A stretch of 64,000 nucleotides of DNA from positions 20,015 to 84,014 of the forward strand of contig CAVXDM010000040.1 in NCBI GenBank assembly GCA_963760455.1, written 5' to 3'. This document shows, piece after piece, positions 4,634 through 37,089 of the stretch. The position numbers were made by a program, and so were the translations under genes. The DNA is from an uncultured Alphaproteobacteria bacterium (GTDB taxonomy: Bacteria; Pseudomonadota; Alphaproteobacteria; Rhizobiales; Rhodomicrobiaceae). Within the stretch, counting starts at the first letter, position 1; each line of letters opens with the position of its first letter. Under the pieces are notes generated by a model. That model did not search any database. It was given only the letters and a program-made list of their open reading frames with translations, and was not told the DNA's origin.

Positions 4634-4636
4634 AAC

Positions 4637-5635: not shown

Positions 5636-5690
5636 CGCGCCGCCGGCTAGCGAGGCGCGGGCCTCGCCGGAAAGCGGCTTCCGGGCGCGC

Positions 5691-6838
5691 TCATGCCTCG
5701 GCTCCTTCGCTCTCGGCCTGCCTGAAGCGGCCATAAGTCCAATAAGCCGCGCAGGCGCCTTCGGAGGAGACCATGCACGAGCCAATTGGGTTATCAGGCG
5801 TGCAGACCGTGCCGAACAGCTTGCAGTCGGTGGGTTTCTTGGCGCCGCGCAGGATCGAGGGGCACTCGCAGATTTGGCGTCGCGGGCGGGCTTGGTCTTG
5901 ATGCCGAAGCGGCGCTCGGCGTCGAAATCCGCGTAAGCCTCCTTGATGCACAGCGCGCTATAGGGAACGAGCCCGAGCCCGCGCCATTCGAACGACGTCC
6001 GAAGCTCGAAGACCTCGGCGACGAGCTTCTGCGCCTTGAGGTTGCCTTCGCGCGTCACCACGCGGATATACTGGTTCTCGACCTCGTGCCGGCCCTCGTT
6101 GAGCTGGCGGATGCACATCAGGGCTGCCTGCATCACGTCGAGCGGCTCGAAGCCCGCGATCACGACTGGGCGCTGGAATTCCTCGGCGAAAAACTCGTAA
6201 GGCTCGCTGCCGATCACGGCGCTGACATGCGATGGGCCGAGGAAGGCGTCGATGGAAACGCTGCCGATGGAGCGGATCTCCGGGCTTTCGAGGATGTGGT
6301 GGATCGCTGCGGGCGTCAGCACATGGTTGCAAAACACCGTAAAATTGGCAAGGCCCTCGGCTTTGGCCTTGACGGATCGCAACCGCGCTTGGCGGCGTGG
6401 TCGTCTCGAAGCCGATGGCGAAGAACACCACCTGACGCGTCCCGGATTTTGCCGCGCGACGTTGAGCGCGTCGTCGACCGAGTAGACCATGCGCACATCG
6501 GCGCCCTCGGCCTTGGCCTTGAGCAGGCTGCGGCGGTTCGAGGCGGGCACGCGCAGCATGTCGCCATAGCTGCAGAGGATCGCGCCGTGCTGTTCCGCAA
6601 GCTCCAGCGCGTTGTCGACCCGGCCTACGGGCAGCACGCAGACGGGGCAGCCGGGGCCGTGCACGAAATTCACGTTCGCCGGCATCAGCTCATGCACGCC
6701 ATAGCGGAAGATCGCATGCGTGTGGCCGCCGCAGAACTCCATGATGTTGTAGTGCCGGGACGGGCTCGCCTCGCGCTTGATCGCCGCGGCAAGCCCCATG
6801 GCCAGCTCGCGGTCGCGGAACTCGTCGACATATTTCAT
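5691..6838 (-). CDS. hypD: Hydrogenase maturation protein HypD (two local frame breaks near 6360-6440 and one before the C-terminus).
   Basis: The N-terminus MKYVDEFRD...CGGHTHAI...GPGCPVCV and the C-terminal motif CMVSSEGACAAYWTYG (frame of ORF 5691..5951) are present. FFAIGFETTTP lies in the alternate frame (ORF 5958..6431). Confidence 0.8.
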
Positions 6839-7085
6839 TGCGCCGCCTCGCCCGCGAAGGCCTCAAGCTCGCTGCCTCTCCGGCTTCGCGGATCATGGCT
6901 AGCGTGCGCTCGGCCTCTTCGGCGGACACTTTGTGGAGCGCGTAGCCCACATGCACCAGCACGAACTCACCGGGCTCGGCGCTGTCGAGGAGGACGACCG
7001 AGACCTCCTTCTTTATGGGGCCGAGCGCCACGATGGCGGTTTCGGCGTCCGGGTTGACGGAGACGATCTGAGCGGGAATGGCAAG
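6835..7085 (-). CDS. hypC: Hydrogenase maturation protein HypC.
   Basis: MCLAIPAQIVSV...LVHVGYAL is the canonical HypC N-terminus. A probable 1-nt deletion near the 3' end would, if corrected, give ...LEAFAGEAAQ* with a TGA overlapping the hypD ATG (ATGA). Confidence 0.75.
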
Positions 7086-11061: not shown

Positions 11062-12063
11062 TTAGACCGGCTGGATGCGCAGCTTGCCCTTCTGCCCGCC
11101 AAGCGTCTTCGCCAAGAGCCGCGCGCAGGCGTAGATCGTATCGAGGTGCGGCGTCGGCGTCTCCGTGAGCCGCGCCAGCTCGATCACCGAGCCAACCAGC
11201 GCCTCAAGCTCCAGCGCCCGGCCTGCCTCGACATCCTGCAGCATCGAAGTCTTGTGCGCGCCGACGGCTTCCGCGCCCGCGATGCGCTTATCGATGCTGA
11301 CCCGGCTTCTCGCGCCAACCTTCTCCGCGATTGCCTGCGCCTCGGTCATCACGGCGTGGGCCAGCGCGCGCGTCTCCGGGAACTGGCAGATGTCCACCAG
11401 CGTCGCGTGGGTCAGCGCGCTGATCGGATTGAACGTCGCGTTGCCCCAGAGCTTGAGCCAGATTTCGGTGCGGATATCGGGGCTGATGGGGGCCTTGAAG
11501 CCGGCCTTGATGAGCGCATCGGAGAGCTGCCGCACGCGCTCCGATTTCGAGCCATCGGGCTCGCCAATGGTAAAGCGGTTGCCCTCGACCACCTTGACCA
11601 CGCCCGGCGCGATCAGCTCGGAGGCCGGATAGACCACGGCGCCGATGACGCGCTCCGCGCCGATATTGGCGGCAACCTGGCCGTCCGGGTCCGCCGCTGC
11701 CACGGGCCGGCCTTCGAACGGGCCGCTAAGCTTATGAAAATACCACCAGGGCAGGCCGTTCTGGAACGTGACCACGGCGGTATTGGCGTGGAACAGGCGC
11801 GGCAAGTCTTTCGCGACCGGCGTCACCTGGTGGGCCTTGAGTGCCAGCAGCACGAAATCGTGGGGGCCTGCCTCGCCGATGGCAGCGGCGGCGCAGGCAA
11901 CGTTGCGCTCGGTGCCGTCCTCCTCGATGAGCGTGAAGCCGTTCCGCCGGATCGCCTCAAGGTTGGCGCCCCGCGCGATGAACGTAACCTCCTCGCCCGC
12001 CAGCGCCAGCCGCGCCCCAAGCAGGCCGCCAATCGCGCCCGCCCCGACAACCGCGAAACTCAT
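11062..12063 (-). CDS. panE: 2-dehydropantoate 2-reductase (ketopantoate reductase).
   Basis: Intact 333-aa ORF with MSFAVVGAGAIGG Rossmann N-terminus and ApbA/PanE family architecture. Confidence 0.8.
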   Translation of the reverse strand: MSFAVVGAGAIGGLLGARLALAGEEVTFIARGANLEAIRRNGFTLIEEDGTERNVACAAAAIGEAGPHDFVLLALKAHQVTPVAKDLPRLFHANTAVVTFQNGLPWWYFHKLSGPFEGRPVAAADPDGQVAANIGAERVIGAVVYPASELIAPGVVKVVEGNRFTIGEPDGSKSERVRQLSDALIKAGFKAPISPDIRTEIWLKLWGNATFNPISALTHATLVDICQFPETRALAHAVMTEAQAIAEKVGARSRVSIDKRIAGAEAVGAHKTSMLQDVEAGRALELEALVGSVIELARLTETPTPHLDTIYACARLLAKTLGGQKGKLRIQPV

Positions 12064-12183
12064 GCTGTTCTCCCTGTGCCTTTTGCAAGTATCGTAGGCC
12101 GCAACCGCGCCTCGCGCGCAAGCGATTTGAGAGGCCAGCGCTAGCAGGCGTGGCTTGCTCCGGCTTTACGAAGCTCAAGAGGA

Positions 12184-13730
12184 ATGGGAATGGGAATGCG
12201 GAAGCATATACTTTTGCGTGAACTTTTGGCGTTTGGGGCGGACGATGCGGTAGCGCTTGCCGCGCCATCGGCCAAGCCGATGACTTACGCGGGATTGCGC
12301 GAGCTGGTCCGTGAAACTGGTGGCGCACTGCGTACTTTGGGCGCCGGCAGCCAGGACCGCGTGGCCATTGTGCTTCCGAACGGTCCCGAAATGGCCGCGG
12401 CATTCCTGAGCGTGGCCGCAAATGCCGCCTCCGCGCCGCTCAACCCCAACTACAAGGCCGATGAGTTCGAGTTCTATCTGTCCGACCTCGGCGCGAAGCT
12501 CCTGATTGTGGAGAAGGGCAGCACCTCGCCTGCCATCGAGGTGGCGAAAAAGCTTGGCGTCAAGATCGTCACGCTGACGCCTGAGCCGGAGCGCGGCGCA
12601 GGCAGCTTCACGCTGACCGGGGAGCCAGAGGCCCAGCCCGCCGGCGCAAGGTGAGGCCGGCCGCTGAGGATGTTGCGCTGGTGCTGCATACCTCGGGCAC
12701 CACGTCGCGCCCCAAGATCGTGCCGCTAAGCCAAAAGAACCTCTGTGCCTCGGGTTGGAACATCGCCCAGACGCTGAAGCTCACGCCCGCCGACCGCTGC
12801 CTCTCCGTCATGCCGCTGTTCCACATTCACGGGCTGATCGCGACGGTGCTCGCCTCCGTGGCGGCCGGCGGAGCTGCGTTCTGCACGCCGGGCTTCAACG
12901 CCTTCAATTTCTTCAACTGGCTCGCCGAGGCCAAGCCCACCTGGTACAGCGCGGTGCCGACCATGCACCAGACGATCCTCTCCCGCGCGGGCAAGAACGA
13001 GGCGGCGATCCGCGCCAACCCTCTCCGTTTCATCCGCTCCTCGTCTGCGTCGCTGCCGCGCCAGGTGCTGAGCGAGCTCGAAAGCGTGTTCAACGCGCCC
13101 GTCATCGAATCCTACGGCATGACCGAGGCTTGCCACCAGATGGCGAGCAACCTCCTGCCGCCCGGCCAGCGCAAGCCTGGAAAAGTCGGCGTCGCGGCCG
13201 GCCCCGAGTTGGGCATCATGGACGAGGCGGGCGAACTGCTGCCGCCCGGCGCCACGGGCGAGGTGGTCATCCGCGGCGATAACGTCACGGCGGGCTACGA
13301 GAACAACCCCAAGGCCAATGCCGAGGCCTTCGCCCATGGCTGGTTCCACACCGGCGACCAGGGCGTGCTCGACGAGGACGGCTACCTCACCATCACCGGC
13401 CGCCTCAAGGAGATCATCAACCGGGGCGGCGAGAAGGTGTCGCCGGCCGAGGTGGACGACGTGCTGATGGATCACCCGGCGGTGCGGCAGGCGCTCACCT
13501 TCGCGGTGCCGCATGCGAAGCTCGGCGAGGAGGTTGCGGCGGCCGTGGTCTTGCGCGAGGGCGCCTCCGTCACCGAGCGCGCGCTCCGCGATTTCGCCGC
13601 CACGCGCCTCGCGGACTTCAAGGTGCCGCGCAAGGTGATCTTCCTCCCCGAAATCCCTAAGGGCGCCACCGGCAAGCTACAGCGCATCGGCCTCGCCCAA
13701 AAGCTCGGGCTGGCCGGCGAAGACGCCTGA
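12184..13730 (+). CDS. AMP-dependent acyl-CoA synthetase (AAE3/oxalate- or malonate-CoA ligase-like). One frame break near 12650.
   Basis: AMP-binding box [11 protein letters not shown], then [11 protein letters not shown], ...GYGMTE and the C-terminal KVPRKV...GKLQR. The N-terminus is in the 12184 frame and the rest in the 12651 frame. Confidence 0.8.
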
Positions 13731-13937
13731 CGGGGCAGGCCCAAAAGAAAAAAGCTTACCTATAAGATTAATCCGCAGCAATGACGGGGACAGGTGACAT
13801 TTTGTTAATGTCATCCCCAGATTTGTATGCACGTTTTCCCCAGTGGACGCCTCACGCGCGTATAGTTTCTGCGCCCGCCCTTCAACGGCCCGTCCGCCGT
13901 GAACGCCGGGCGCAACGCCGTCGCGCGGAGGAGGCGA

Positions 13938-14279
13938 ATGCATATCCTGGTCCTGGAGGACGAGCCGCTGATCGCGGTGGATATCGCCGCGACCATCGCT
14001 GACGCCGGCTGGGACGTGGCCGGCCCGGTAGGCTCGATCCCAAAAGCGTTGCGACTGATAGATGAGAAGCGCTGCGAGGCCGCCATCCTGGATGCGAACC
14101 TTGGGGGCACAAGCGCGGCACCAGTTGCCGAGAGGTTGCTGGCGTGCGGCATCCCTTTCATTGTCTTGTCGGGATACAGCGACGAGCAGTTGCCGAGCCC
14201 GCTTTCAGGCGCGCCATTCCTCGCAAAGCCCTACGACCCGGACGATCTCGTCGCCCTTGTGCGCAGCCTTCGCAGGTAG
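13938..14279 (+). CDS. Single-domain response regulator (CheY-like receiver).
   Basis: MHILVLEDEPLIAVDIA...ILDANLGG...PFIVLSGY is the receiver-domain signature. There is no output domain. Confidence 0.75.
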   Translation: MHILVLEDEPLIAVDIAATIADAGWDVAGPVGSIPKALRLIDEKRCEAAILDANLGGTSAAPVAERLLACGIPFIVLSGYSDEQLPSPLSGAPFLAKPYDPDDLVALVRSLRR

Positions 14280-14377: not shown

Positions 14378-15946
14378 TCAATCCAGCCTCGGGTAATTCG
14401 CGATGTGCCGGATGCTCTGGTAGAGCCGCGCCAGCCGGGGGTACATGCGCACGTACACCTCGGAATAGAGGCGTGTGTAAAGCTCCTTGTTTCCGGCCCG
14501 CGGCATAAAAATGCGCCCCGGCCGGCTCATCCGCGCCTGCGCCTCTGCATGGTCTGCGTGGAGCCCCGCGCCAACGGCGGCATTCATGGCGGCGCCCAGG
14601 CCAGAGGTCTCGAACGTATGCGGCCGCTCGGCGGGAATGCCGAAGATATCGGCGGTTACCTGCATGACGCCGTCGCTCTGCGAGCCGCCGCCCGCGACCT
14701 TCAGCCGTTCGATCTTCACGCCATTGCGCCGCGAAAGCCGCGCCGCCGCCTCGCGCAGCGCATAGGCGATGCCTTCGACGATGGCGCGGTACATATGCGC
14801 CCGGTTGTGCACGTCGCCGAAGCCGATCATCGCGCCCTTGGCCTCCGGCCCTGGAATCCGCACGCCCGGATTCCAGAACGGCTGCAGGATAAGGCCCATA
14901 TTGCCGGGCGGCGTTGATTCCAGCATCTTCTCGAACAGCACTTCCGGCGCGATGCCCTGCTCCTCGGCCTCGATCACCTCGTGCGCGGCGAACTGCTCCT
15001 TGAACCAGTTGACCATCCAGTAGCCGCGCTGGACCATGATTTCGCTGTTATAGCGGCCCGGGCGCCGCGGCAGGGTAGGGCGGCAGGAACGGGATCGGCT
15101 CGACATAGCGATCGTTGCAAGTGTTGATCGTCGCCGTCGTGCCGTAGCTCAAGACCGCGAGTTCTGGCGTCCACGCGCCTGCAGCCAGCACCTCGCAGGC
15201 CTTATCCGCGCCCGACGCATAGACCGGCAGCCCCTCGGGAATGCCCGTATCGCTGGCCGCCTCAGCGGTAATACGGCCAATCGATTGGCCGGCTGGGACC
15301 AGTTCCGGCAGCACCTCGCGTTTCACACAGAAGAGCTTCCATGTGAGATCGCGCGGTCCCGCCCATTGCTGCCGTTTGCCGTCGAAAGGAACGTACCCTA
15401 CTTGGACGCCACAGCGTCGCGCAATTGCCCGGTCAGCCTGAGATGGAAATACCCCGAAAGAAACAGGAAGTGCCGCGTCCTGGCCCACAGCGCGGCGTCA
15501 TCGGCGGCGAGCCAATTGCATTCGGCGCGGGACTGGAAGTAGTGGATGGCCCGGCGCTGGCCAGCCGCGCGCAGGCCGGCTTCGAGCCACAACGGCAGAG
15601 CCGGATATTGGCTGGTGCGGCGCTGGTCGAGCCAGCTTACAGCCGGGCGCAGGGGCTTGCGGTTTTCGTCGAGGCACACCGTGACGGAGCGCTGCGTGGT
15701 GACGGACATGCCGGCGATGCGCGGCTTGTACTCCGGGTGCGTCCGCCAGAGGCCCTGGCAGGCTTCGCAGAGATTGGTCCAATAGTAGCCGCAATCCTGC
15801 TCGGCCCAGCCCGGCGCCCGCGAGAAATAGGGCTGGATATGCACCTGCGACTTGGCGAGAAGCTCGCCCCCGGCATCGAAAATCATCGCCCGGACGCTTT
15901 GCGTCCCCTGATCGATGGCCAGGAGGAGGTCTTTGCTTTCCCTCAC
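14378..15946 (-). CDS. FGGY-family carbohydrate kinase (glycerol/xylulose kinase-like). Two frame breaks.
   Basis: LLAIDQGTQSVRAMIFD (N-terminal FGGY domain), ...VLSYGTTATINT, and ...KVAGGGSQSDGVMQVTADIFGIPAERP (C-terminal FGGY domain), distributed over three overlapping ORFs. Confidence 0.75.
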
Positions 15947-17444
15947 GGCGTTCCCGTTCCCCCCGGCGCCCGATAGCTTTCCGCTACGATTTTCAGATAG
16001 CGCTCCATCTCAGCATGCCAGCGCGGCTCGTCCCAGCCAAGACGGCTTTGGCATAAGCCCTCGATCCGAGGTAGCACCTCTTGAGCGCCGGCGGGCATCG
16101 TGTTGCCGAGGCTCACGCGGCGCAGCAGGAGGTCGTCCAGGTGCACGACCATCTCATTGCCGAGCACCCACTCGATCGTATCGAGGAGCGCCTGGCCCTT
16201 CGGCAACGGCAATGCCGGGTGGCCAAGCCCGTGCGGGAAGGTGAGCTTCTGCCGGAACAGCGGCCCCGCTGCGTGCTTGCGGCTTTCAGTTCCGCCTCGC
16301 CGATCAGCCCCGCGGCGTGCAGGGCGTCGAGCGCGATGAGCCGGAAGGTGGTGAGCTTGCCGCCGGCCACGCAAACCATGCCATCGCGATGCCAGATCGA
16401 ATGCTCGCGGCTTTCCTGCGACGGGTTCAAGCCCTTGCCCGAGGCGATCACCGGCCTGACACCCGCCATGGCCGACACCACATCGGCGGAGGTAATCCCA
16501 GCGCGACGGAAACACATGGCGGATCAGCTCCAGAGAGGTAATCCAATTCCTCCTGGGTGCAGCGCGGCTCCTCCGAGAGCGGCTCGTTGTGATCGAGATC
16601 GGTCGTTCCAACGACGGTCATCCCCGCCCATGGGAAAATGAAGACGGGGCGCTTGTCCCTTGGGTGCAGGGCGGTGATGCAATCGTCGGTAGGCAGGCGG
16701 CCGCGCTCGAAGAACAGGTGGCTGCCGCGCAACGGCCGGATTTTGCGCGGGCTCGCCCGAGAGCGGCTTCGGCCCATGCGCCCGCCGCGTCGATGACCGT
16801 GGCCGCTTCGAATACGGCCTGCCTGCCGCTTACTTCGTCGCGCACCTGGAGCGAGAACCGCGCGCCGGAGGCCCGCACGCTTTCCACCCGCATGTAATTG
16901 GCAAGCCGCCCGCCATCGGCCGCGGCCTCGTGCAGGATGCGAAAAACCAGCCGCGCGTCGTCGGTCAGCGCGTCGGTGTAAATCATCGCGCCGCGCAGGC
17001 GATCCGGCGAGAGGCCGGGCAGGCGCTCAAGCAGCTCCTTGCGGCCGATCCAGCGGTGATCCCTGATGCCGGCCAGAAAGTCGTAGAGCCACAGCACCGC
17101 CGTCAAGGGCCAGCGGCCAGGGAACTCTCCCTGGCGCACCAGGAAGGCATAAGTCTGCCGGATCACCAGGCCCGGCAGCTCGCGGATCATGCGCTCCCGC
17201 TCCCGCAGCGCGTCGCGCGTCAGGCGGAAATCCCCTTGCGCGATATAGCGCAAGCCGCCATGCACCATTTTCGACGAGCGGCTCGACGTTCCCCAGGCGA
17301 AATCCTTCTGCTCCAGCAGCAGCGCCTTCCGCCCTCGCCGCGCGGCTTCGAGCAGGACGCCAGCACCCGTGATGCCGCCGCCGATGACGATCACGTCCCA
17401 GCGCGTGGCCGCAAGCTCCTCGATATCGGGCCGTTCGCCGAACA
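15943..17444 (-). CDS. glpD: FAD-dependent glycerol-3-phosphate dehydrogenase GlpD. About three frame breaks.
   Basis: MFGERPDIEELAATRWDVIVIGGGITGAGV...MVHGGLRY is the GlpD N-terminus (RBS GGAGGAA). Pieces continue in ORFs 16448..16777, 16113..16517 and 15943..16611. Confidence 0.8.
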
Positions 17445-17446
17445 TT

Positions 17447-19169
17447 CTATTCCTCCAGCAGACAGCCTGGGTTGAGCCGCCCATCGGGGTCGAAATAGCC
17501 CGTGAGCGCCCTGAGCGCCCCCATGCCTTGCTCGCCCTTCTCGTATTTGAGCCACGGCGCGTGATCGCGGCCCACGCCGTGCTGATGGCTGATCGTGCCG
17601 CCCATTTTGACGATGGCTTCGGATGCTGCCGTCTTGCAGGCGCGCCAGCGTTCGAGCGTGCCCTCGTAGCTGGCGGCATTCTTGAAAACGTAGGTTGTGT
17701 AGATGCTGCAGCCTTGGGCGTACATGTGCGAGAGGTGCGAAAAGACGAGCACCGGCTCGGCGCCGCTGGCGGTCCGGATCGCCTGCTCCATGGCCTGCAT
17801 GGTGGCCGTGACCTTGCTCCAGTTGATGGACGTTTCGAGCGTGTCGACGGAATAGCCGTGCTCCCAGAGCCCGTTGCGCAGGTAGGGCGCGCGGAAGCGG
17901 GAATGCTCCCAAAGCCTGCCCAGGACCCGGTGGCCAAGCGAGGCGCCGCCGGCCCGCCGCAAGGCGCGCCACACTTCGCCGAGCGCGAAGGCCGCTTGCC
18001 GTTTGCTTCCTGTCGCGCCGAACGTGACCATGCAGCGTTCGCCATCCTTGCAGCCGAAAAGCGCAAGGCCACGGTCGAGGAGGGCCGCCCCCCGGCTGAT
18101 CGCCGGCCAGCGCCAGTTGCGTGGCGGTCTCCACCGGGTTCGACAGGCGCAGCATGGATAGCTGCACCTTGGCCTGCGCAAGTTGCCTGACCAGGTTCAG
18201 CGCCTGCCTCCCAGTTGGGCACGAAGGCGGCATGAAACAACTCGCGCTCCGGCAGCGGCGTGACCCGGAGCTTGACCTCCGTGATGGCGCCGATCCGCCC
18301 TTCGCTGCCGAGAATCAACTCGCGCAAGTCAGGCCCGGCAGCCGAAGCCGGCACATCGGGTATGGTCATCGTGCCGTGCGGCGTCTCGATGCGCGCGCCC
18401 GCGAACATCTGCTCGATGCGCCCGTAGCGCAGCGATTGCTGGCCGGAGGAGCGGGTGGCGACCCAGCCGCCGACGGTGGATAGCTCAAAGGATTGCGGAA
18501 AATGGCCAAGCGTGTAGCCGTTTTCCTTGAGCTGCCGCTCAAGCGCCGGGCCGGGAGTGCCCGCGCCGAAGGTTGCGATTTGGCTTTGCCGGTCCAGCGC
18601 CAGCAGGCGGTTCATCCGTTCCAGGGAGAGGGTCAGCACCGGCTCCGGCAGGCGGGAACGTTGACGTGGCCAGCCACGGAGGTTCCGCCGCCATAAAGAA
18701 TGACGGCGAAGCGCTGGCCCAAAGCCCATTGCAGCACCTCGCGCACTTCCTCGCTGGTGGCCGGCAGCGCCACGCCGTCCGGAAAACGGCCGAAATCGCC
18801 GGAACGCATGGCCAGCCAATCGGGAAAGCTCTGCCCCCGGGCGTGGCGGATGCGCGTTTCCGCGCCTGTCGATACGAGCGGATGGGGAGGCAGCCGCGAT
18901 TCGGGCACCTGTGCGATGACCGAAGCCAGGCTGGCATCGGGCAGAATCGCGCCCGGCCCGTTCAAGAGCTGGTTGAGAAACGCCAGCGCCTTGGGCTTCA
19001 GCGGGAAGTCAGTTTCCTCCCCGCCCCAGCCATTCCACCGGCGCCGGCCGCCCCTCAAGTCCCAATCCAATGCTCGCCGTCCCCGAAAATGGCCGCGCCC
19101 GCGAAATTCATAGCACGCCGCCGCATGTTTGTCCTTCGCCGGGAAGCCGGCAGGCGGTCTGTCCGCCAA
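17447..19169 (-). CDS. FAD-linked oxidase, alkyl-dihydroxyacetonephosphate-synthase-like (FAD-binding-4 domain plus C-terminal FAD-oxidase domain). Two frame breaks.
   Basis: ...RWNGWG...VILYGGGTSVAGHVNVP, ...STVGGWVATRSSGQQSLRYGRIEQM, and a C-terminus with HQHGVGRDHAPWL. Its stop overlaps the glpD start. Confidence 0.7.
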
Positions 19170-19442
19170 TCGTTGGCCGTTCCCGCACGAACTTTTGATC
19201 GGAATGAAAATGCAGCACGCGGAAAAAAAATATTTGGCGGTTGTGGACGGCGAGGTGCCGGGTTGCAGGCCCGAAACGCAGCGAAGTCTTTGTTTTCAAC
19301 GAGCTGGCCGATGCCGCAAAAGTGAATGTTCGATACAATTCAGTTTTAGGTAATTCCAGGCGACGCTCTGTTCAACGCACAGGAAACGTGTTAAGCGTTT
19401 TACTCTTGAAACTCATGGGGGGGAAGAAGGAGGAGTCGATAT

Positions 19443-19857
19443 ATGTCGCAGATTAAGCGTGCTTCCAAAGGGAAGAGATCGAATAGGGCCTTGACCGCTC
19501 TAAGTGTTGCGGGCGTGTCGCTGGCCGCAACGGCCGCCAGCTCGGCCGCAGTGTTGAGCCCGGTGACTGTACCGGCTATGCCTTTGGGCGAGGAGGAGAT
19601 CTCCGGCGTCACCTTGGCGACATTCCACCTCCTGGACCAGGAAAAGGCCGGAGCGAAAGACGATTTGCTGCAACTGACCGGATGCCGCGGATGCGGTGGC
19701 ATGGCTGCGAGGCTGCAGAGGTGGCTGCGGCGGTGGCGGCAGAGGTTGCGGTGGCCATGGTTGCCGCGGTGGCTGGGGCGGTTGCGGCGGTTGCGGCGGT
19801 TGCGGCTGCGGTGGCGGCTGGTGTCTGTCGTGGGGCGGTTGCAGGCCCTGGTGCTAA
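19443..19857 (+). CDS. Putative TOMM/LAP precursor peptide. The leader is in frame 0 (19443-~19704). The Gly/Cys-rich core is in the +1 frame (~19702-19857, ...GCRGGCGGGGRGCGGHGCRGGWGGCGGCGGCGCGGGWCLSWGGCRPWC*).
   Basis: Strong RBS AGGAGGAG 8 nt before the ATG at 19443. An AT-rich promoter region lies upstream. The gene is directly upstream of the YcaO gene. The +1 frame has a stop at 19675-19677 and no start of its own, so the core must be reached by a frame change. Confidence 0.55.
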
Positions 19858-20126
19858 GCAGGCGCGCCTTTTTGGTTGCCTGACAGGCGCGTATCGCTAT
19901 GGCCGGGCTGGCATGACTGGTCCGGTCAAAGCGTTTTCTGCGGGCGGCGAGTGTGGCCGCTCAGCGCGATAGGACGCCTCAAGCCGCATCGGGAACGGTG
20001 CGGCATGCGTCGCTTGACGCAAACGGGAAGTGCTTGAGCGGAAAACAAATTCAAGATAAATTGCGATGTTCTGGCGGCCGGGGTATACGCCTTCAATTGG
20101 CGCCGGAAGGAGCTTTGACCGGCCTC

Positions 20127-22388
20127 ATGACAAGCGAACAAGCCGACGCTTTCGCGCCGCATAGCGGCGAAACGATTCCGCAATTCTCGCCGAACTTCAC
20201 GGTTTTCCAGCTATCGCCCGATACCCTGTGCCTCTACTCGGAGGACCGGAAATTCCTTCTTCATGGGCAAGTGTTTTGCGCGCTTGCCGCCTTGATCGCC
20301 GAGGGCGGGCAGAGCTTCGAGCAGCTCGTGGGTGCGCTGGAGCGGCAATTCCCGCGGGACCACATACAAGAAGCCCTGCAGAGGCTGATCGTCCGCCGCT
20401 ACATCGTGGCGAAACCCCAGTCTCTTACCGGCTTGGCCGCTGCCTATTGGGCGAGCCTTGGTCTGGCGCCGGATGCCGCGGAGAAAAATCTGCAAGACTG
20501 CCGCGTCCGGATTCAGGCATTCGACGTTCAAGGCGAGCAGGAGCTTGCCGGTGCGCTGGGCGAGCTGGGCGTCCGCGTGGTCAAGCGCTCCCAGGATATG
20601 AGTGTCACGCTGGTGGGCGATTATCTGGAAGAGCAGCTTTCGGATGTGAATAAGCGGCATTTGTCATCGGGCGCTCCGTGGGTGCTCGCGCAGCCGACCG
20701 GCATTTTCCCGCTCGTTGGGCCGGTGTTCCGGCCTGGCCAGGGGCCTTGCTGGATGTGCCTTGCGGACCGCATGGTGCGCAATAGAGAAGTGAGGGCGCT
20801 GCTCGACAGCAGCGAGGCCCGCTGCCTGAGCGTGTCGCCATTGGTGCGGCATACGATGGGGCAAAGCGGCATCCAGCTTGCGGCGAACGAGATCGCGAAA
20901 GCTATCGCCACCGGTTTCCGTACCGATCTGAACCAGCATATCGTAAGCCTCGACCTTTTGGGCTCAGCCGTCGCGAAGCACTATGTGGCGGCCCGTCCGC
21001 AATGCCCGGTTTGCGGCAAGGACGATCTGCACAATCCCGCCCGCGCCGCCGTTCCGCTGGAATTGCAGGGTGGCGGCAAGCCGGTCATGACCAGCGGCGG
21101 CTACCGCACGGTCACGTCGCGGGCCACGGTTGCGCGTCACCGCAAGCATGTGAGCCCGCTCACCGGCGTGGTGTCCAAGCTGGAGCGCGCGGAGGTGGAC
21201 CTGCCGCTGAACGCCACCTACATCGCGGCGCACAGCTTCTCGGCGCCATCGAAAACCGTCAACGAACTCCGGGGCAGCCTCAACAGCTACAGCTTCGGCA
21301 AGGGAAGCACGGCGGAGCAGGGTGAAGCGAGCGCCCTTATGGAGGCGATCGAGCGCTACTCCGGCGTTTACATGGGCGACGAAATCCGGGCGCCCGGGCG
21401 GTTCGTGGACTTCGCGCCTGGCGACGCCATTCCGCCGAACGACGTCCTGCTCTTCAGCGATGAGCAAGTCCGGCAAAGCATGGAGCCCGTGCCTGGCCCC
21501 GAGGACGAGCCGATGAGCCCGACGCTCTTCGACAAGGAGGCCGAGATCGATTGGTCGCCGGTCTGGTCGCTGCGGGACAACCGCTTCAAACATCTGCCTA
21601 CGAGCCTTCTCTATTTCGCCTATCGCGGCTCCGCGGGCTTCCAGGCCGATTCGAACGGCTGCGCGGCCGGCAACACGGTCGAGGAAGCGATTGTGCAAGG
21701 CTTCCTGGAGCTGGTCGAACGGGATGCCTATGCGCTGTGGTGGTATAACCGGGTGCCGCGTCCCGAGGTGGACCTCGCCAAGTTCGACGATTCCTACGTG
21801 CACGACCTTCGCAATCAGTTGAGCGAAACCGGCCGGCGCCTCTGGGTGCTTGACATCACGACCGATTTGGGGATTCCGAGCTACGTCGCGATCGCGCACT
21901 GGATCAAGGACGGGGCCGAATACATCGATTTCGGCTCGGGCTCGCACTTCGACGCGCGCATCGCCATGCTGCGGGCGCTGACGGAGCTGAACCAGTTCAT
22001 GTCGCTCGGGCTGTTGAGCGCGGACGCGAGGATGCAGGCGAGCCTCGACGGAGATCTGCCGCTGCGGCTTCAAGATTTTCCGTATCTCTTGCCGGGCAAG
22101 GGGCCGGCGGTGGAATCGGCCTTCGACCCCGATTTCGGCCATCTTGAGCCGCGCGATCAGGTGAAGGCCTGCGTGCGCACCGTCGAAAAGGCCGGCCTCG
22201 ATTTTCTCGTGCTCAATCAGACGCGGCCGGACATCGAGGTCCCGGTGGTCAGGGTGATCGTCCCCGGAATCCGGCATTTCTACCGCCGTTTCGCGCCCGG
22301 CCGGCTTTACGATGTGCCGGTGCAACTCGGGTGGCTCAAAAAGCCGGTCAGGGAAGACCAGCTCAATCCGATATTCCCTCATACTTGA
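20127..22388 (+). CDS. Fused E1-like (ThiF/ocin_ThiF_like docking) plus YcaO cyclodehydratase, i.e. a TOMM C-D fusion (azoline-forming heterocyclase).
   Basis: Intact ORF with RBS GGAAGGAG before ATG 20127. The N-terminal half has paired CxxC (CWMCLADR, CPVCGKDD). The C-terminal half has the YcaO ATP-binding motif EASALMEAIERYSGVY and a proline-containing C-terminus. Confidence 0.85.
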   Translation: MTSEQADAFAPHSGETIPQFSPNFTVFQLSPDTLCLYSEDRKFLLHGQVFCALAALIAEGGQSFEQLVGALERQFPRDHIQEALQRLIVRRYIVAKPQSLTGLAAAYWASLGLAPDAAEKNLQDCRVRIQAFDVQGEQELAGALGELGVRVVKRSQDMSVTLVGDYLEEQLSDVNKRHLSSGAPWVLAQPTGIFPLVGPVFRPGQGPCWMCLADRMVRNREVRALLDSSEARCLSVSPLVRHTMGQSGIQLAANEIAKAIATGFRTDLNQHIVSLDLLGSAVAKHYVAARPQCPVCGKDDLHNPARAAVPLELQGGGKPVMTSGGYRTVTSRATVARHRKHVSPLTGVVSKLERAEVDLPLNATYIAAHSFSAPSKTVNELRGSLNSYSFGKGSTAEQGEASALMEAIERYSGVYMGDEIRAPGRFVDFAPGDAIPPNDVLLFSDEQVRQSMEPVPGPEDEPMSPTLFDKEAEIDWSPVWSLRDNRFKHLPTSLLYFAYRGSAGFQADSNGCAAGNTVEEAIVQGFLELVERDAYALWWYNRVPRPEVDLAKFDDSYVHDLRNQLSETGRRLWVLDITTDLGIPSYVAIAHWIKDGAEYIDFGSGSHFDARIAMLRALTELNQFMSLGLLSADARMQASLDGDLPLRLQDFPYLLPGKGPAVESAFDPDFGHLEPRDQVKACVRTVEKAGLDFLVLNQTRPDIEVPVVRVIVPGIRHFYRRFAPGRLYDVPVQLGWLKKPVREDQLNPIFPHT

Positions 22389-22398
22389 GGAGCGAGCC

Positions 22399-23849
22399 GT
22401 GGCACCTGGATCGAAACCGCCGCGTCCGGGCCTGTCCGCCCGGCTCAACGGCAGGGGCAAGCTGGAGGCCCATTCGAACGGGGCCATCGTCGCCTGCCTG
22501 GAAGAATATACGGTCAATCTGGGGGCGTTCAGCGCGGCTGCGTGGGATGCCGCGCAAGAGCTTGCAACCGGACTGCCGCTCGGCTCGCTCGGCCCAGGAG
22601 GCGGGAGCACGGCCAAGGAACTGGACGTCCTCGTCCGGCGCCTGGCAGGCCACGGCCTGCTGGAATACCGCGCCGGGCATCCGCGCGGACGACGCTGGGG
22701 ATCTGCTCGTTATCGAGCCGCTGCTTTCCAGCTATTGGCCGCGGATACCGCAGCTTGACGATGCGGATACGCTGCTGCTTTCGCGGTTTGCGTTCATGCG
22801 ACGCCGCGACGATGGGATGGTGCTGGAATCGCCCCGCGCCAGTGCGCTGTTCCGGATCTGCGATCCGGAATTTGCGAGCCTCGTTGCCATGCTCGCTTCA
22901 CCCCAGCAAATCGGCAAGCTGCGCCGGCAGGAGGGTTTCCCCGGCGTGGAGTTCCTTGCCCTGCTGGTCGATAGCCAAATCGCCTTCAAGGCCGGAGAGG
23001 CTGCCGATAGCGGCTCGCGCTGGGCCGAGGGTGACAACAGTCTGGCGCTGTGGGACTTCCACGACCTTCTGTTCCACGCCCGCAGCACCGAGGGCCGGCA
23101 CGCCAACCCGATAGGCGCCGTCTCTCCGCATAGCGGCATCGCTGCCCAAGCTGCCGGCGGTCAGGCCTTCCTGGCCCGGCGAGAAAATCGATCTTTGCGC
23201 GCACCTGGAGCCCGGCCCGGAAGCCCAACCGCCGATTGTCGAGCTGCTGCGGGAGCGTCACTCGGTGCGCTGCTTCGACGACCGGAAGCCCATCACTCTT
23301 GCCGAGCTTTCGCAGTTTCTCGACGGCTCCGCGCGCGCGGTGATGCGGCAGCTCGGGGGCAGAGGCGGCAAGGACGGTACGGCCCGGCTGTTCCCGCCCT
23401 ATGCGTCCGGGGGCGCAAGCTACCCACTGGAGGTCTATCTGGCGGTCAACACCTGCGAAGGGCTGGCCCGCGGCTTCTATCATTACGATGCCCATGCCCA
23501 TGCGCTGACGGCCATCGAGGTACCTGCGAGCGAAATCAAGGGGCTGCTGGAGCGGGCGGCATCTGCGATGGGCGAGGAGGCGCCGCCGCAAGTCCTGATT
23601 ACAATCGCGGCACGCTTCGGCCGAACCTCCTGGAGATATAGCTCACTCGCCTATTCGCTTATCCTCAAGGATGTGGGGATCTTGACGCAAAACCTGTACC
23701 TCGTGGCCGCCGCGATGGGGCTCGGCGGATGCGCGATCGGGCTCGTCAATATCGGCCAGTTCGAAAAGATGACCGGGATCGGATTCCATGTTGAAGGCCC
23801 GGCCGGCCAGTTCGCGCTTGGCCGCTGCCTGCCGTCCGGCTCTGGCTGA
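22399..23849 (+). CDS. SagB/McbC-type FMN-dependent dehydrogenase (azoline to azole oxidase). Two frame breaks.
   Basis: GTG start with GAGGAG RBS, 8 nt after the YcaO stop. The C-terminal half has the nitroreductase fold: RRSVRCFDDRKPITLAELSQFL, ...PPYASGGASYPLEVYLAV, ...RTSWRYSSLAYSLILKDVG. Confidence 0.8.
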
Positions 23850-23894: not shown

Positions 23895-24729
23895 CTACTG
23901 GGGCGGCCCGCCATCCGGCAGGTCCGGAGAGCCGCTTGGCGAATAGCACCCGATGCTCATGCGGGCACGCCTGTCGACTAGCGCAAAGATGGCGCCTTGA
24001 GGATCCCTGCAATGGATGGCCTGAGCGCCGCCCTGCACAGTAAACGGGCCGTCGAGAATCTGGCCGCCGGCCGCCTCGACGCGCTTGGCCGCCGCCGCGA
24101 CGCCTGCGACGTTGAAGTAATAGAGCCACAGCGAAAACGGCCGATTGGCCGGGCCTCGCGAGCATGCCGCCGATGGTCTTTCCGCCGGCGGAGAATTCCT
24201 GGTACGTATCTTCTGGATCTGCCGGAGCCCCTGCTTTTTGCCAGCCAAGCAGCGGGCCGTAGAAGGCGAATGAGCGCTCAATGCTGGCCGTATGCAACTC
24301 GTGCCAGCCTACCGCGCCTGGTCCCCGTGGAGCCGGTTGCTGCTGGCTGTCTTCGCGGTCGTTGACCAAGGCGATCGTGCCCCTTTGCGGGTCCGCGACG
24401 ATCGAGAAACGGCTGACACCAAGGACATCCGCCGGCGGGATGTGCACCACGCCGCCGAGCTGTTCCACGCGATTCGCGGTATCGTCCACGCTGTCAACTG
24501 CGACATAGCCGATCCATTGCTGCTCCGCGCCGTTCTCCAGGGCATCCGGGGGTAGGCCGATCACGCCGGCGACAGGGGTGTCCTTGGCGATGAACAGGGT
24601 GTAGGGCGCGTCCGGCATCGAAACGTCCGCCGTGCGCCAGCCCAGGACGGCGGAATAGAATGCCTTCGCACCTTCCACGTCCGCCGCCGCCAGCTCGTAC
24701 CAGACGAAGCGGTTGCCTGAATTGTCCAT
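23895..24729 (-). CDS. Two-domain VOC-family (glyoxalase/bleomycin-resistance/dioxygenase fold) protein. One frame break.
   Basis: An N-terminal VOC domain (FVWYELAAADVEGAKAFYSAVLGW) and a second VOC domain (WHELHTASIERSFAFYGPLLGW ... PFSLWLYYFNVAGVAAAAKRVEAAGGQIL) are present. The gene is convergent with the TOMM operon. Confidence 0.65.
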
Positions 24730-24839: not shown

Positions 24840-25850
<1,011 letters not shown>

Positions 25851-34645: not shown

Positions 34646-34658
34646 GTAATAACATTAC
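34646..34658 (+). promoter_or_regulatory. Zur-box-like palindrome (gtaataacattac) abutting the zur start, just downstream of TTGACC at 34632.
   Basis: GTAAT-aac-ATTAC resembles the AT-rich Zur operator core (TAATGTTA/TAACATTA). It is positioned to autoregulate zur-znuCB. Confidence 0.35.
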
Positions 34659-35171
34659 ATGGTGGGCATGGCCGAGCGAAAAGAACCCTCATTTCCCGTG
34701 CGCGATCACGATCATGGCGTATGTGTAGCGGGCGCGCTGGGCCGCGCGAAGCTGCGCTGCGAGGAGAAGGGCATCAAGTGGACGGCGCTGCGCGAGCAGG
34801 TCTTCCAGCACGTCACCGCGAGCCACCGGCCCATCAGCGCCTACGATTTGATCGAAAGCCTGGCCAAGGACGGAAAGCGCCTTGCGCCGGTCTCGGTCTA
34901 CCGCATCCTGGATGTGCTGCGGGAGGCAGGCATCGTGCACAGGCTCGAAAGCCGCAACGCCTTTTTCGCCTGCATGACCGGGCACTATGGAGAGCGGCAG
35001 ACGGTTGCTTTCGTGTGCCGCGAATGCGAGTGCGTGACCGAGGCGGAGGCGCCGGAGGCGTTCCGGGCAATTGGTGAGGTCTCGGAGGCGACGGGATTTC
35101 GTCCGCTTGCCATCATGGTCGAGGTGAACGGAACCTGCGCCGAGTGCCGCGAGGGGGCAGCGCCATGCTGA
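34659..35171 (+). CDS. zur: Zinc uptake regulator (Fur family).
   Basis: A Fur-family fold with a C-terminal CxxC...CxxC (CRECECV...CAECREG). The stop overlaps the znuC start (ATGCTGA). Confidence 0.8.
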   Translation: MVGMAERKEPSFPVRDHDHGVCVAGALGRAKLRCEEKGIKWTALREQVFQHVTASHRPISAYDLIESLAKDGKRLAPVSVYRILDVLREAGIVHRLESRNAFFACMTGHYGERQTVAFVCRECECVTEAEAPEAFRAIGEVSEATGFRPLAIMVEVNGTCAECREGAAPC

Positions 35172-35982
35172 TGGTGCCCAAGGCTTCCGCCGGTCCCCAC
35201 GAGCATGCCGCTGGAGCGAAAGGGGCAGCGGGGCCGCGTCGAACCGATGCCCTTGCCTCCGCGTCCGATGTCTCGCTCTACTTTCGCGGTAAGCTCGTGC
35301 TCGAACACGTCAGCATCGCCGTTCATCCTTCCGAGATCGTAACCCTGATCGGACCGAATGGCGCGGGCAAGACCACGCTTGCCCGCATGCTGCTGGGCCT
35401 GGTCAAGCCGTCGAGCGGCACGGCCGCCGGCGCGAGGCTTTGCGCGTTGGCTACGTGCCGCAGCGTGTCGCAACCGACTGGATCATTCCGCTTACCGTGC
35501 GGCGCTTTATGTCGCTGAGCCAGCCCGTCTCCAAGGCGCGCGCGCATGAATGTCTTGGGGAGACGGGGGCTGCGCATTTGATGGATGCGCAGATGGCGGA
35601 GCTTTCGGGCGGAGAGTTCCAGCGCGTGGCGCTGGCGCGGGCGCTGGCGCGCGATCCTGAACTCCTGGTGCTGGACGAGCCCGCGCAGGCCATCGATTTT
35701 TCCGGCGCGGCGAGGCTCTACGAGCTGATCGGGGCCATCCGGCAGCGGCGCGGCTGCGGCATCCTGCTGATCTCCCACGACCTGCAAGTGGTGCTAGCCG
35801 CCAGCGACCGCGTTGTCTGCCTGAACCGGCATATCTGCTGCGAGGGTGTGCCGGAGGCGGTGGCGGGCCATCCAGAGTATGTGCGGCTGTTCGGGCCGGA
35901 GGCGGCGCGCAGCTTCGGTCTCTACGAGCACCACCACGATCACACGCACACCCTTTCCGGCGACGTTTCATGCGGCGGGTAG
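35165..35982 (+). CDS. znuC: Zinc ABC transporter ATP-binding protein ZnuC (one frame break near 35430).
   Basis: Walker A LIGPNGAGKTTL in the 35144 frame. LSGGEFQRVALARAL, LLVLDEP and a His-rich C-terminus (HHHDHTH) in the 35440 frame. Confidence 0.8.
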
Positions 35983-36173
35983 GCTGGGGCCGTCATCGCG
36001 AGGCTGCAAAGCAGCCACGGCGATCCGGTGCGGCTCGCACGGCGCATGGATTTGCGGCTCCTGGATTGCTTCGAGGCGCTGCCCCTAGGAAGAAACCCGC
36101 AGTTTCATCTAGAAGGGCCGGCCACTCCAGCCTGTGCGAAGCTCGCAATGACGTTAATGGTGTGCGCTGTCCG

Positions 36174-36270
36174 TCATCCCGGAAACGACGCAGGCGTTAT
36201 CCGGGATCGTTGCAGAAACCGGCGCCCGTGAAGATCCCGGATAAGGCGCAAGCACCTTTCCGGGATGACG
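36174..36270. repeat. Family-2 palindromic repeat inserted between znuC and znuB.
   Basis: gtcatcccggaaacgacgcaggcgttatccgggatcg...gatcccggataaggcgcaagcacctttccgggatgacg. Confidence 0.8.
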
Positions 36271-36291
36271 GGGTTGCGGCGGAGGGGCGCG

Positions 36292-37089
36292 ATGCTTGAC
36301 GATTTTCTGACGCGCGCGGCGCTGGCCGGCATCGGTACGGCCATTCTGGCGGCGCCGCTGGGCTGCTTCGTGGTGTGGCGGCGGATGGCCTATTTCGGCG
36401 AGACGATTGCCTATTCCGGGCTACTGGGCGTGGCGCTAGGCTTCCTGCTGGGCATCGACCTGACGCTGGGCGTGATCGCGACGGCGATCGCCATGGCACT
36501 GCTGCTCACCGCTTTCCAGGCCCAGCGAAAGATACCTTACGACACGCTGCTTGGTATCCTGGCCCACACGGCGCTGGCGGCGGGGCTGATCGCGGCGAGC
36601 TTCGTGGGCGGCGCGCGCCTCGATCTCATGGGCTATCTCTTTGGCGATATTCTCGCGGTCTCCAAGACCGATCTCGCCTGGATTTGGGGCGGCGCGATTG
36701 CCGTTCTTGCCGGGCTGTTCCGGCTCTGGCGGCCGCTTTTGGCCATGACGGTGAACGAGGATTTGGCAGAGGCGGAGGGCGTGCCCGTGCGGCGGACGGG
36801 AACGGCATTCATCCTGCTCATTGCGGTGACGGTGGCGCTCGCCATGAAGGTGGTCGGCATTCTGCTCATCACCTCGCTCATGATCTTCCCGACAGCGGCC
36901 GCGCGGCCCTTCGCGAAGACGCCGGAGCAGATGGCGGCGCTGGCAGGCGCGGGCGCCGCGGTGGCGGTCTGCGGCGGGCTCTACTTGTCGCTCAAGTTCG
37001 ATACCGCCGCCGGGCCGTCCATCGTGATCGCGCTGGCCGCGCTGTTCTTCCTGGTGGCCGCGCCAGCGCTCGCGTTTCGCGGACGCTGA
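36292..37089 (+). CDS. znuB: Zinc ABC transporter permease ZnuB.
   Basis: Intact ORF with about 8 TM helices and the ABC-3 family signature. Confidence 0.8.
   Translation: MLDDFLTRAALAGIGTAILAAPLGCFVVWRRMAYFGETIAYSGLLGVALGFLLGIDLTLGVIATAIAMALLLTAFQAQRKIPYDTLLGILAHTALAAGLIAASFVGGARLDLMGYLFGDILAVSKTDLAWIWGGAIAVLAGLFRLWRPLLAMTVNEDLAEAEGVPVRRTGTAFILLIAVTVALAMKVVGILLITSLMIFPTAAARPFAKTPEQMAALAGAGAAVAVCGGLYLSLKFDTAAGPSIVIALAALFFLVAAPALAFRGR

Follow-up and report, generated by a model that had tools for sequence, protein, structure and literature searches.

In microcin B17, Cys (and Ser) residues adjacent to Gly in a Gly-rich core are converted to azoles by a YcaO cyclodehydratase and a flavin mononucleotide (FMN)-dependent dehydrogenase. 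The system consists of separate McbB, McbC, and McbD proteins, with McbEF as a dedicated ABC exporter and McbG as the pentapeptide immunity protein, and its precursor has a short leader without a hydrophobic segment and a core free of Arg and Trp, in which fused bis-heterocycles arise from Ser-Cys pairs. Cyanobactins are made from PatE-like precursors that carry recognition sequences and short cassettes, and their pathways include the macrocyclase PatG. Heterocycloanthracin (HCA) and sonorensin pair a repetitive Cys-Xaa-Xaa, Gly-rich core with a fused cyclodehydratase, and the HCA heterocyclases, which have no leader-binding domain at the N terminus, depend on a separate F protein (PMC4603692). 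In bufferins, the precursor bears a Sec-type signal, which is very uncommon among bacterial ribosomally synthesized and posttranslationally modified peptides (RiPPs), and a RiPP that carries heterocycles has been shown there to be exported through Sec (PMC12452194). Here we describe a gene cluster in a 64,000-nucleotide (nt) stretch of DNA from an uncultured alphaproteobacterium of the Rhodomicrobiaceae (assembly GCA_963760455.1, contig CAVXDM010000040.1), which we refer to as the window. Positions 19443 to 23849 of the window hold three co-directional genes, whose products are a precursor rich in Gly and Cys, a heterocyclase of three domains, and an azoline oxidase; a fourth, convergent gene encodes a tandem vicinal oxygen chelate (VOC) protein.

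The biosynthetic enzymes and their closest described relatives

The cluster contains a YcaO cyclodehydratase, an E1-like/leader-binding domain, a SagB-type dehydrogenase, and an adjacent Cys-rich precursor, the enzyme and precursor set of thiazole/oxazole-modified microcin (TOMM) or linear azol(in)e-containing peptide (LAP) loci. A first, sequence-only reading of this DNA had proposed a TOMM/LAP-type RiPP cluster of this composition, with intergenic gaps of 269 and 10 nt. The gaps were reproduced, and all three TIGR models passed their cutoffs (TIGR03604, 231.7 bits against a cutoff of 219.25; TIGR03882, 136.7 against 36.9; TIGR03605, 165.7 against 78.4). The same trio of precursor, fused heterocyclase, and oxidase occurs in five related loci (L001 to L005), each with an intact precursor of ~130 amino acids (aa) in a single frame; these are alphaproteobacterial metagenome-assembled genomes placed in the Hyphomicrobiales, the Rhodomicrobiaceae, Methylocystis, and, for two of them, the class only. 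Because the E-values of the enzyme matches are far below chance and five related loci carry the same trio, the cluster is not a chance arrangement. Two more candidates, L006 (Solirubrobacterales, 38% identity) and L007, were set aside as too distant to inform on the family. The precursor-heterocyclase-oxidase (A-CD-B) genes plus the VOC gene recur across unrelated genomic contexts. We consider it probable, from these comparisons and those that follow, that the locus is functional and belongs to a TOMM/LAP RiPP family, widespread in Alphaproteobacteria, in which a cyanobactin-type heterocyclase and oxidase act on an unrelated Cys/Gly-rich precursor and that the frame breaks seen in three of its genes are assembly artifacts.

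The heterocyclase gene (20127 to 22388, plus strand) has an ATG start, is uninterrupted, and encodes 753 aa. From the N terminus, the protein comprises a winged-helix leader-binding domain of the RiPP recognition element type, an E1-like domain with the two CxxC pairs CWMC and CPVC, and a YcaO domain with the motif EAIERYSG, in agreement with the E1-like/YcaO fusion with an ERYS motif that had been read from the sequence. In addition to passing TIGR03604 and TIGR03882, it matched Pfam YcaO (305.9 bits), TIGR00702, and, at its N terminus, the Pfam winged-helix model DUF4423_like (PF21084). Residues 17 to 749 aligned with residues 6 to 771 of LynD (4V1T; E-value of 4e-145), TruD was matched over its full length (E-value of 2e-139), and MusD was matched as well; the domain layout and the ATP-site motif are those of LynD, TruD, PatD, and MusD. 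The protein is 80 to 82% identical to its counterparts in L001, L002, and L005, and its dN/dS value against L023, a closely related syntenic contig, is 0.075.

After a gap of 10 nt, a GTG codon at 22399 begins the gene for a ThcOx-like FMN azoline oxidase of the SagB family (22399 to 23849, plus strand). The gene has two frame changes, near 22689 and 23141, and removal of those two bases leaves 482 codons with no internal stop, the length of the L023 oxidase, and a dN/dS value of 0.15. The TIGR03605 match lies on the C-terminal part, consistent with the nitroreductase-fold, SagB-type dehydrogenase recognized previously, and intact homologues carry Pfam ThcOx (PF22767) ahead of Nitroreductase, the same combination of an N-terminal domain and a nitroreductase fold that is found in ThcOx.

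The full-length match of the heterocyclase to LynD, TruD, and MusD, its winged-helix domain, and the ThcOx domain of the oxidase place the machinery, as judged by homology, in the cyanobactin type rather than in the split McbBCD type or the N-terminally truncated HCA type. The similarity to microcin B17 and heterocycloanthracin that had been pointed out earlier holds for the Gly/Cys core, but the enzymes are nearest LynD, TruD, and ThcOx. Differences from cyanobactins lie elsewhere: the precursor is unrelated to PatE and has one long Gly/Cys core in place of cassettes with recognition sequences, the host is an alphaproteobacterium, none of the loci encodes a PatG macrocyclase, and no Peptidase_S8 domain, as would mark PatA or PatG, appeared among the Pfam matches for nine annotated loci of the family or in the window open reading frames (ORFs) scanned. 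Microcin B17 shares the chemical logic, whereas here the CD enzyme is fused and neither an ABC exporter nor a pentapeptide-repeat gene occurs in the cluster or its conserved neighborhood. Compared with HCA, the heterocyclase keeps its winged-helix domain, the leaders are unrelated, and the HCA hosts are Firmicutes.

The precursor and its family

The precursor gene (19443 to 19857, plus strand) starts with the ATG at 19443, downstream of a ribosome-binding site read from the sequence (AAGGAGGAG, 19427 to 19435). This site closes a conserved upstream stretch (~19340 to 19440), in which an alignment of the window with L001, L002, and L005 showed the invariant blocks TTTTAG-TAAT, CTCTGTTCAA, and GAAGGAGGAG; a promoter scan found no sigma-70 consensus promoter upstream of the gene. 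The leader ORF reads MSQIKRASKGKRSNRALTALSVAGVSLAATAASSAAVLSPVTVPAMPLGEEEISGVTLATFHLLDQEKAGAKDDLLQLTGCRGCGG and runs to LLQLTGCRGCGG. The almost pure Gly/Cys core noted previously, GCRGGCGGGGRGCGGHGCRGGWGGCGGCGGCGCGGGWCLSWGGCRPWC, was reproduced in the +1 frame relative to the leader, with its stop codon at 19855 to 19857. From start to stop, the gene spans 415 nt, equal to 137 codons, a stop codon, and one extra base, which lies within ~19692 to 19712. The nearest intact homologue, P0001, is also 137 aa long and is 83% identical, and P0002 is likewise intact.

As assembled, the gene instead encodes a 146-aa ORF that joins the leader to an Arg/Leu/Trp-rich tail (RLQRWLRRWRQRLRW...). This is the longest ORF in the assembled sequence and is identical to a public protein (P0003), so that it might be taken for the true product and the Gly/Cys frame for an incidental one. 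However, in 89 of the best 120 database matches and in four of the five related loci, leader and Gly/Cys core share one uninterrupted frame that closes with CLSWGGCxPWC, whereas the Arg/Leu frame appears only in assemblies with insertions or deletions (indels). These intact homologues effectively refute the 146-aa ORF as the product, and we give that reading practically no credence.

The GC-rich core has long open frames in all three phases, rich in Gly/Cys, Arg/Leu/Trp, and Ala/Val, respectively (window 19682 to 19972, plus strand). Since gene callers may then choose the wrong phase, family precursors are often misannotated even where the sequence is correct. A 119-aa Ala-rich ORF called in the wrong frame in L022 (7181 to 7540, minus strand) is one such case, and in L020 two TOMM precursor genes, arranged in tandem upstream of the heterocyclase gene, escaped the gene caller.

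The family is large. A database search returned 1,677 matches at an E-value of ≤0.01, and a query with the leader only (79 residues) against 1.84 billion cluster representatives returned 198 clusters at 50% identity (E-value of ≤0.001). Hosts include Bradyrhizobium, Methylocystis, Methylocella, Beijerinckiaceae, and Rhodomicrobiaceae, so the cluster is not the oddity for the Rhizobiales that it had first seemed. Bradyrhizobium erythrophlei, a cultured carrier, has the same gene set (LT670849, at about 7,048,800 to 7,054,500); its precursor, WP_072825014, is a family member whose annotation reads “hypothetical protein.” Pfam and NCBIfam models assigned three intact precursors to no family; the only match was a subthreshold one to TIGR03601, which for the best family member reached 14 bits (E-value of 0.059; cutoff, 35) on the low-complexity core only, and the other precursors did not match.

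Family members share one layout, in the order of a basic n-region, an uncharged stretch, a spacer, an invariant motif, a short linker, the core, and a conserved end. By simple sequence rules, the n-region carries a charge of +4 to +7 in the 86 full-length members on which the N-terminal statistics are based. The uncharged stretch has a median length of 21 aa and is followed by A-x-A in 52 of these 86, and twin-Arg motifs and lipoboxes are absent from all 86. The invariant motif, (L/T)GEEEI(S/A)DV(S/T)LATF(H/Y)(L/V)FDKE, is present in 111 of the best 120 database matches, and the linker that follows often ends in QLARG. Among the 89 intact members within those 120 matches, the core is 37 to 92 residues long and consists of 46% Gly, 26% Cys, 10% Arg, and 6% Trp, with almost no acidic residues; the median number of Cys residues is 15, and 79% of them are preceded by Gly. 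The conserved end reads (W/C)CLSWGGC(R/N/S)PWC. In the window precursor, KRASKGKRSNR forms the basic n-region and ALTALSVAGVSLAATAASSAAVL the uncharged h-region; LGEEEISGVTLATFHLLDQE is the recognition motif, after which comes a core that contains 13 Cys residues and ends in WCLSWGGCRPWC. The composition of the N terminus resembles that of a Sec signal peptide or a signal anchor. No such segment is present in the heterocyclase, the oxidase, or the VOC protein.

A family of this description has been noticed before. Haft 2009 (PMC2674419) cites Lee et al. (2008) for a Bradyrhizobium japonicum precursor with Cys-Arg-Gly repeats. As in the window, this is an alphaproteobacterial (Gly-Cys-Arg)n precursor beside TOMM enzymes, and we infer from the one sentence of description that the gene belongs to the same family. 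That sentence describes it from bioinformatics only and mentions neither a Sec-like N terminus nor a VOC partner. Our literature search returned nothing on the family or its C-terminal motif beyond it. On the strength of the 2009 citation, the family appears therefore to have been noticed bioinformatically since 2008 and yet to be uncharacterized; the earlier suggestion of a previously uncharacterized peptide stands insofar as we found no paper characterizing the family, but the family itself was already on record.

Frame breaks and the quality of the assembly

Within 5.3 kb, four single extra bases break reading frames of the cluster; the oxidase gene contains two of them, and the precursor and VOC genes contain one each. 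The reference for indels was L023, the syntenic contig mentioned above, which was reached through the VOC homologue P0121 and is 97.1% identical to the window over 19.2 kb. Across this distance, the alignment shows 23 single bases inserted and 6 single bases deleted in the window compared with L023, and single inserted bases fall exactly at 22689, 23141, and 24140, the frame breaks of the oxidase and VOC genes. Without these three bases, the oxidase and VOC genes read as ORFs of 482 and 277 codons, respectively, which contain no internal stop and match their homologues in length. Three neighboring genes on the minus strand (14378 to 19295), glpK (FGGY_N/FGGY_C), glpD (DAO/DAO_C), and a gene for a flavin adenine dinucleotide (FAD)-linked oxidase, are split over two or three frames as well, with FAD_binding_4 and FAD-oxidase_C spread over three ORFs. 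In L023, the azoline oxidase (482 aa), VOC protein (277 aa), FAD-linked oxidase (540 aa), and GlpD (499 aa) are all intact, and among the broken neighbors only glpK is not. The L023 precursor has a one-base insertion of its own at a different site, and precursor frameshifts at various positions of the GC-rich repeat occur in other long-read-style assemblies (P0004 to P0009, P0012, P0084, and P0103). Frameshifts could not be counted on a third-codon-position GC phase plot or a codon-usage frame plot because of noise; the split Pfam domains and the DNA alignment with L023 were decisive instead.

Since the breaks are absent from L023, the neighboring genes are broken in the same way, the corrected lengths match homologues, and dN/dS values are low, we regard the frame breaks as very probably assembly errors. 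The frame problem flagged at the outset is real in that the breaks are present, but it reflects a general defect of the assembly, shared by glpK, glpD, and the FAD-linked oxidase gene, rather than a property of the locus.

The alternative is that the frameshifts in the precursor, oxidase, and VOC genes are genuine and that the cluster is decaying and no longer makes its product. The density of breaks could be read in this way, as could the frameshifted precursor of L023 and an Arg-Tyr in place of Lys-Tyr in an oxidase motif. So could the uneven distribution of insertions relative to L023, of which 21 lie between 15056 and 24140 (~9 kb) and 3 lie between 25000 and 33032 (~8 kb). However, one-base insertions of the same kind disrupt glpK, glpD, and the FAD-linked oxidase gene; glpD and the genes for the FAD-linked oxidase, the azoline oxidase, and the VOC protein are intact in a contig that is 97% identical; and precursor frameshifts differ in position among many long-read-style assemblies. 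Once the single bases are removed, the genes contain no in-frame stops or larger deletions and have dN/dS values of 0.075 to 0.16, indicative of purifying selection. We therefore consider decay very unlikely and treat the locus as a real, ordinary member of a known but uncharacterized RiPP family that lies within a low-quality stretch of assembly.

The clustered insertions are mostly not homopolymer extensions, and a local drop in coverage, a mixture of strains, and a failure of polishing are possible causes. At 4637 to 6862 (minus strand), a single 741-aa stop-to-stop ORF contains HypD (profile positions 3 to 307 of 351) and a HypE-type AIRS_C domain, which probably reflects further indels that fuse or shift two hydrogenase maturation genes.

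The VOC gene, the surroundings, and possible roles of the product

The sequence-only reading had treated the three genes as the minimal machinery, but a conserved fourth member adjoins them. The gene for the tandem VOC protein (glyoxalase/bleomycin-resistance fold) is convergent with the oxidase gene (23895 to 24729, minus strand; 277 codons after removal of base 24140). Its product matches Pfam Glyoxalase, Ble-like_N, and Glyoxalase_6, has no signal peptide, and is 97% identical to the intact 277-aa homologue P0121, with a dN/dS value of 0.16 against L023. A VOC protein of ~270 to 285 aa is found across the family, and its gene is next to the precursor gene in 12 of 13 distinct loci of the family, in two orientations. 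The gene is downstream and convergent in the window, L001, L003, L004, L005, L011, L013, L019, L020, L022, and L023, and it is upstream and divergent in B. erythrophlei (L008). Among solved structures, that of Rv0577 of Mycobacterium tuberculosis is the closest (3OXH; E-value of 5e-27; profile E-value of 2e-48), and NCBIfam KbpA is matched at 100 bits, below its cutoff of 250. Homology with Rv0577/KbpA-type tandem VOC proteins covers the full length; these proteins have not been linked to RiPP clusters, and Rv0577 lacks the Cys of HCxDPQG that is invariant in the VOC clade described here, in which W-(Y/H)-E-L strands are conserved in both halves. The literature searched on Rv0577 offered nothing usable on its function, and we know of no Rv0577/KbpA-type tandem VOC protein with a defined biochemical function. 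The VOC protein of the cluster could be a cytoplasmic self-protection binder or an accessory enzyme.

Together, these genes suggest the following pathway. The precursor of ~137 aa would be translated as a Sec-type signal or anchor, an invariant acidic/hydrophobic motif (EEEIS-V-LATF-L-DQE), and a cationic core with 13 Cys residues, mostly preceded by Gly. In the cytoplasm, the winged-helix domain of the heterocyclase would dock on the EEEIS-V-LATF motif, the YcaO domain would use ATP to cyclodehydrate Gly-Cys sites to thiazolines, and the ThcOx-like FMN oxidase would aromatize these to thiazoles. Because the cluster encodes no dedicated exporter, we propose that the modified peptide would leave by the general Sec pathway, with its signal cleaved or retained as an anchor, and would act in the periplasm or outside the cell, while the cytoplasmic tandem VOC protein would sequester it for self-protection or perform a further step. 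The Sec-like N terminus, taken with the lack of a dedicated exporter, points to action outside the cytoplasm, although a nucleic acid target is conceivable; for both the chemistry and the export, the proposal draws on homology and on the bufferin analogy. Only tentatively, and with less than even confidence, do we suggest that this is the first YcaO-dependent RiPP class with a Sec-signaled precursor, an envelope-located or extracellular cationic polythiazole, and a cytoplasmic Rv0577-type VOC partner.

Several observations weigh against all or part of this interpretation. The heterocyclase ends in NPIFPHT (22368 to 22388), and the family pattern is NP(I/V)(F/H)PH(T/S), with TQYLPHS in B. erythrophlei; the canonical PxPxP C terminus of azoline-forming YcaO proteins, present in the NPTPMPF of the cyanobactin enzyme LynD, is replaced by P-x-x-P-H, which we regard as a variant rather than as a disqualifier for TOMM membership. 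The Lys-Tyr motif of the oxidase reads Arg-Tyr (AGA TAT, 23634 to 23639), and the Lys is reportedly important for activity in BcerB. WRY is common to the window and L023 only, and 10 more distant homologues have WKY; the presence of Arg-Tyr in L023 also argues for a real lineage-specific substitution rather than an assembly error. No VOC gene lies within 10 kb of the L002 cluster, and L021 encodes a VOC homologue (57% identical) without the cluster. The signal call follows from simple sequence rules, and the 21-residue uncharged stretch could equally be a membrane anchor. Azole formation is a prediction from homology, and real frameshifts, as opposed to errors deduced by comparing sequences, are formally possible. 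Finally, L015 and L017 have a precursor and a VOC gene and no YcaO or SagB gene on contigs of 13.7 and 9.6 kb, so heterocyclization may not be obligatory in every member. The precursors of this subclade (L015, 7305 to 8810; L017, 3529 to 4866) have His/Met-rich repeats (GGMHGCAGG...) and end in DWCLSWGGCNPWC.

The gene content also bears on what the product does. It might be a microcin-like antibiotic, a mature narrow-spectrum polythiazole toxin that enters competitors and hits intracellular nucleic acid machinery (gyrase or the ribosome), with the VOC protein as a sequestering immunity factor. The core would suit a nucleic acid or membrane binder in being strongly cationic (10% Arg and essentially no Asp or Glu) and in containing Trp, it varies widely in length (37 to 92 aa), and the CC pair in the conserved end (CCLSWGGC) of many members could give a bithiazole. 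VOC-fold proteins shield producers of bleomycin-type compounds by binding them, and the VOC gene matches Ble-like_N. However, the loci examined contain no exporter, pentapeptide-repeat immunity gene, or uptake-related gene; the cluster is syntenic in close relatives, under purifying selection, and not on a mobile element; and the 11 C-terminal residues hardly vary among family members, which would be uncommon in a toxin engaged in an arms race. We find an antibiotic role rather doubtful, and a gyrase or ribosome target, which the sequence-only reading had suggested, is pure speculation.

Bufferins and oxazolins provide a different, possible parallel, with a Sec-type signal in place of a leader, conversion of Cys to five-membered heterocycles, and no dedicated exporter (PMC12452194). 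Their enzymes are MNIO and DUF2063 proteins, whereas those here are a YcaO protein and an FMN oxidase; bufferins start from small, folded proteins that contain few Cys residues and have an experimentally shown copper role, whereas the present family is known from genes alone. By analogy, the product could be a periplasmic metal-handling or redox peptide, a Sec-exported Cys/thiazole peptide that binds copper or another soft metal. In keeping with this, the Sec-signal-like N terminus is common to both groups, some subclades have His/Met-rich repeats (GGMHGCAGGMHGC) typical of Cu(I) sites, the L015 and L017 precursors occur without local heterocyclase genes, the hosts include methanotrophs and other copper-demanding taxa, and the VOC gene of L020 has a bufferin-type cluster as its immediate neighbor. 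Against this, the cores contain only 1.6% His and 0.4% Met, and 10% Arg would be unexpected for a chelator; the conserved neighbors of the cluster do not include a metal regulator, a sigma/anti-sigma pair, or a DoxX-type gene; the bufferin adjacency was seen once; and the nearest metal-related genes in the window are >10 kb away. On balance, we consider a metal-handling role unlikely.

The L020 region (Beijerinckiaceae; 4465 to 6536 and 11673 to 14012, minus strand) encodes an 86-aa Cys-rich signal-peptide precursor, an MNIO protein (PF05114), and a DUF2063/HvfC_N protein along with the TOMM cluster; MNIO and DUF2063 genes are absent from the TOMM cluster itself and occur only as this separate neighboring cluster. 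A DUF4331 gene lies within a few kilobases of the cluster in L019 (5388 to 7783), where two MauG-like di-heme peroxidase fragments follow, and in L011 (14241 to 14915); this adjacency may be coincidental.

The 269-nt spacer between the precursor and heterocyclase genes (19858 to 20126, plus strand) is predicted to be structured (fold of −130.2 kcal/mol, z = −3.0). A weak terminator-like hairpin (19851 to 19865) followed by a T-run (GCCTTTTTGG) lies right at its start, after the stop codon, and is no stronger than in shuffled sequences. The spacer might set the ratio of precursor to enzymes. An Rfam scan of 18.9 to 26.1 kb found no riboswitch or leader RNA, and its only match was a group II intron (25068 to 25741, plus strand), composed of RF02003 (D1 to D4; 25068 to 25208; 107.9 bits; E-value of 4e-24) and RF00029 (D5/D6; 25660 to 25741; 38.5 bits against a gathering score of 40). 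With only ~450 nt between the two matches, the intron has no reverse transcriptase ORF. It lies ~340 nt from the VOC gene start, and the L023 alignment passes through it. The earlier remark that no transposase is nearby is accurate as to transposases but overlooked this ORF-less intron.

Upstream of the cluster on the minus strand are the FAD-linked oxidase gene, glpD, and glpK, followed farther away by genes for an acyl coenzyme A ligase, sensor kinases, a sigma-54 activator, and hypD/hypE. Of the hydrogenase and glycerol genes said to be nearby, the glycerol part (glpK/glpD) is as described, but the hydrogenase part consists of the maturation genes hypD and hypE at 4.6 to 6.9 kb. Downstream are the intron, a DUF3829 gene, a glycerate-kinase-like gene, ada, a Band 7 protein gene, and rlmH; beyond rlmH come genes for a Fur-family regulator and an ABC-3 metal importer and then a cytochrome oxidase cluster. 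L002 and L005 share only the glpK side with the window, and more distant loci share only the four cluster genes. Neither the annotated homologous loci nor the window ORFs scanned, which are not all of its ORFs, yielded a peptide exporter, a C39 peptidase, or a subtilisin, in line with the earlier statement that an ABC exporter and a C39 peptidase are missing. The only ABC system seen in the window is the importer locus just mentioned (34653 to 37089, plus strand), which is of the Zn/Mn type and not a peptide exporter and comprises the Fur-family regulator, an ABC ATPase (profile positions 46 to 136 only), and an ABC-3 permease; the ATPase gene is probably frame-broken too.

A single locus of this kind is not surprising, and the enzymes of the family should be recognized by standard genome-mining tools. 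Its GC-rich precursor repeat is often misassembled or miscalled, as in the window, L020, L022, L023, and many ENA entries (where it is frameshifted, called in the wrong frame, or uncalled), and as a result family precursors are hidden in public annotation. The family is large and is conserved in environmentally important Alphaproteobacteria, including Bradyrhizobium, methanotrophs, and the Hyphomicrobiales of peat and fen. It merits experimental work on two counts, a YcaO substrate that apparently carries a Sec signal and a VOC gene that is tightly linked to the cluster, and, if true, Sec targeting and a VOC partner would both be new for YcaO-type RiPPs. The family would then be a YcaO counterpart of the bufferins and would provide the first functional context for the Rv0577/KbpA protein family.

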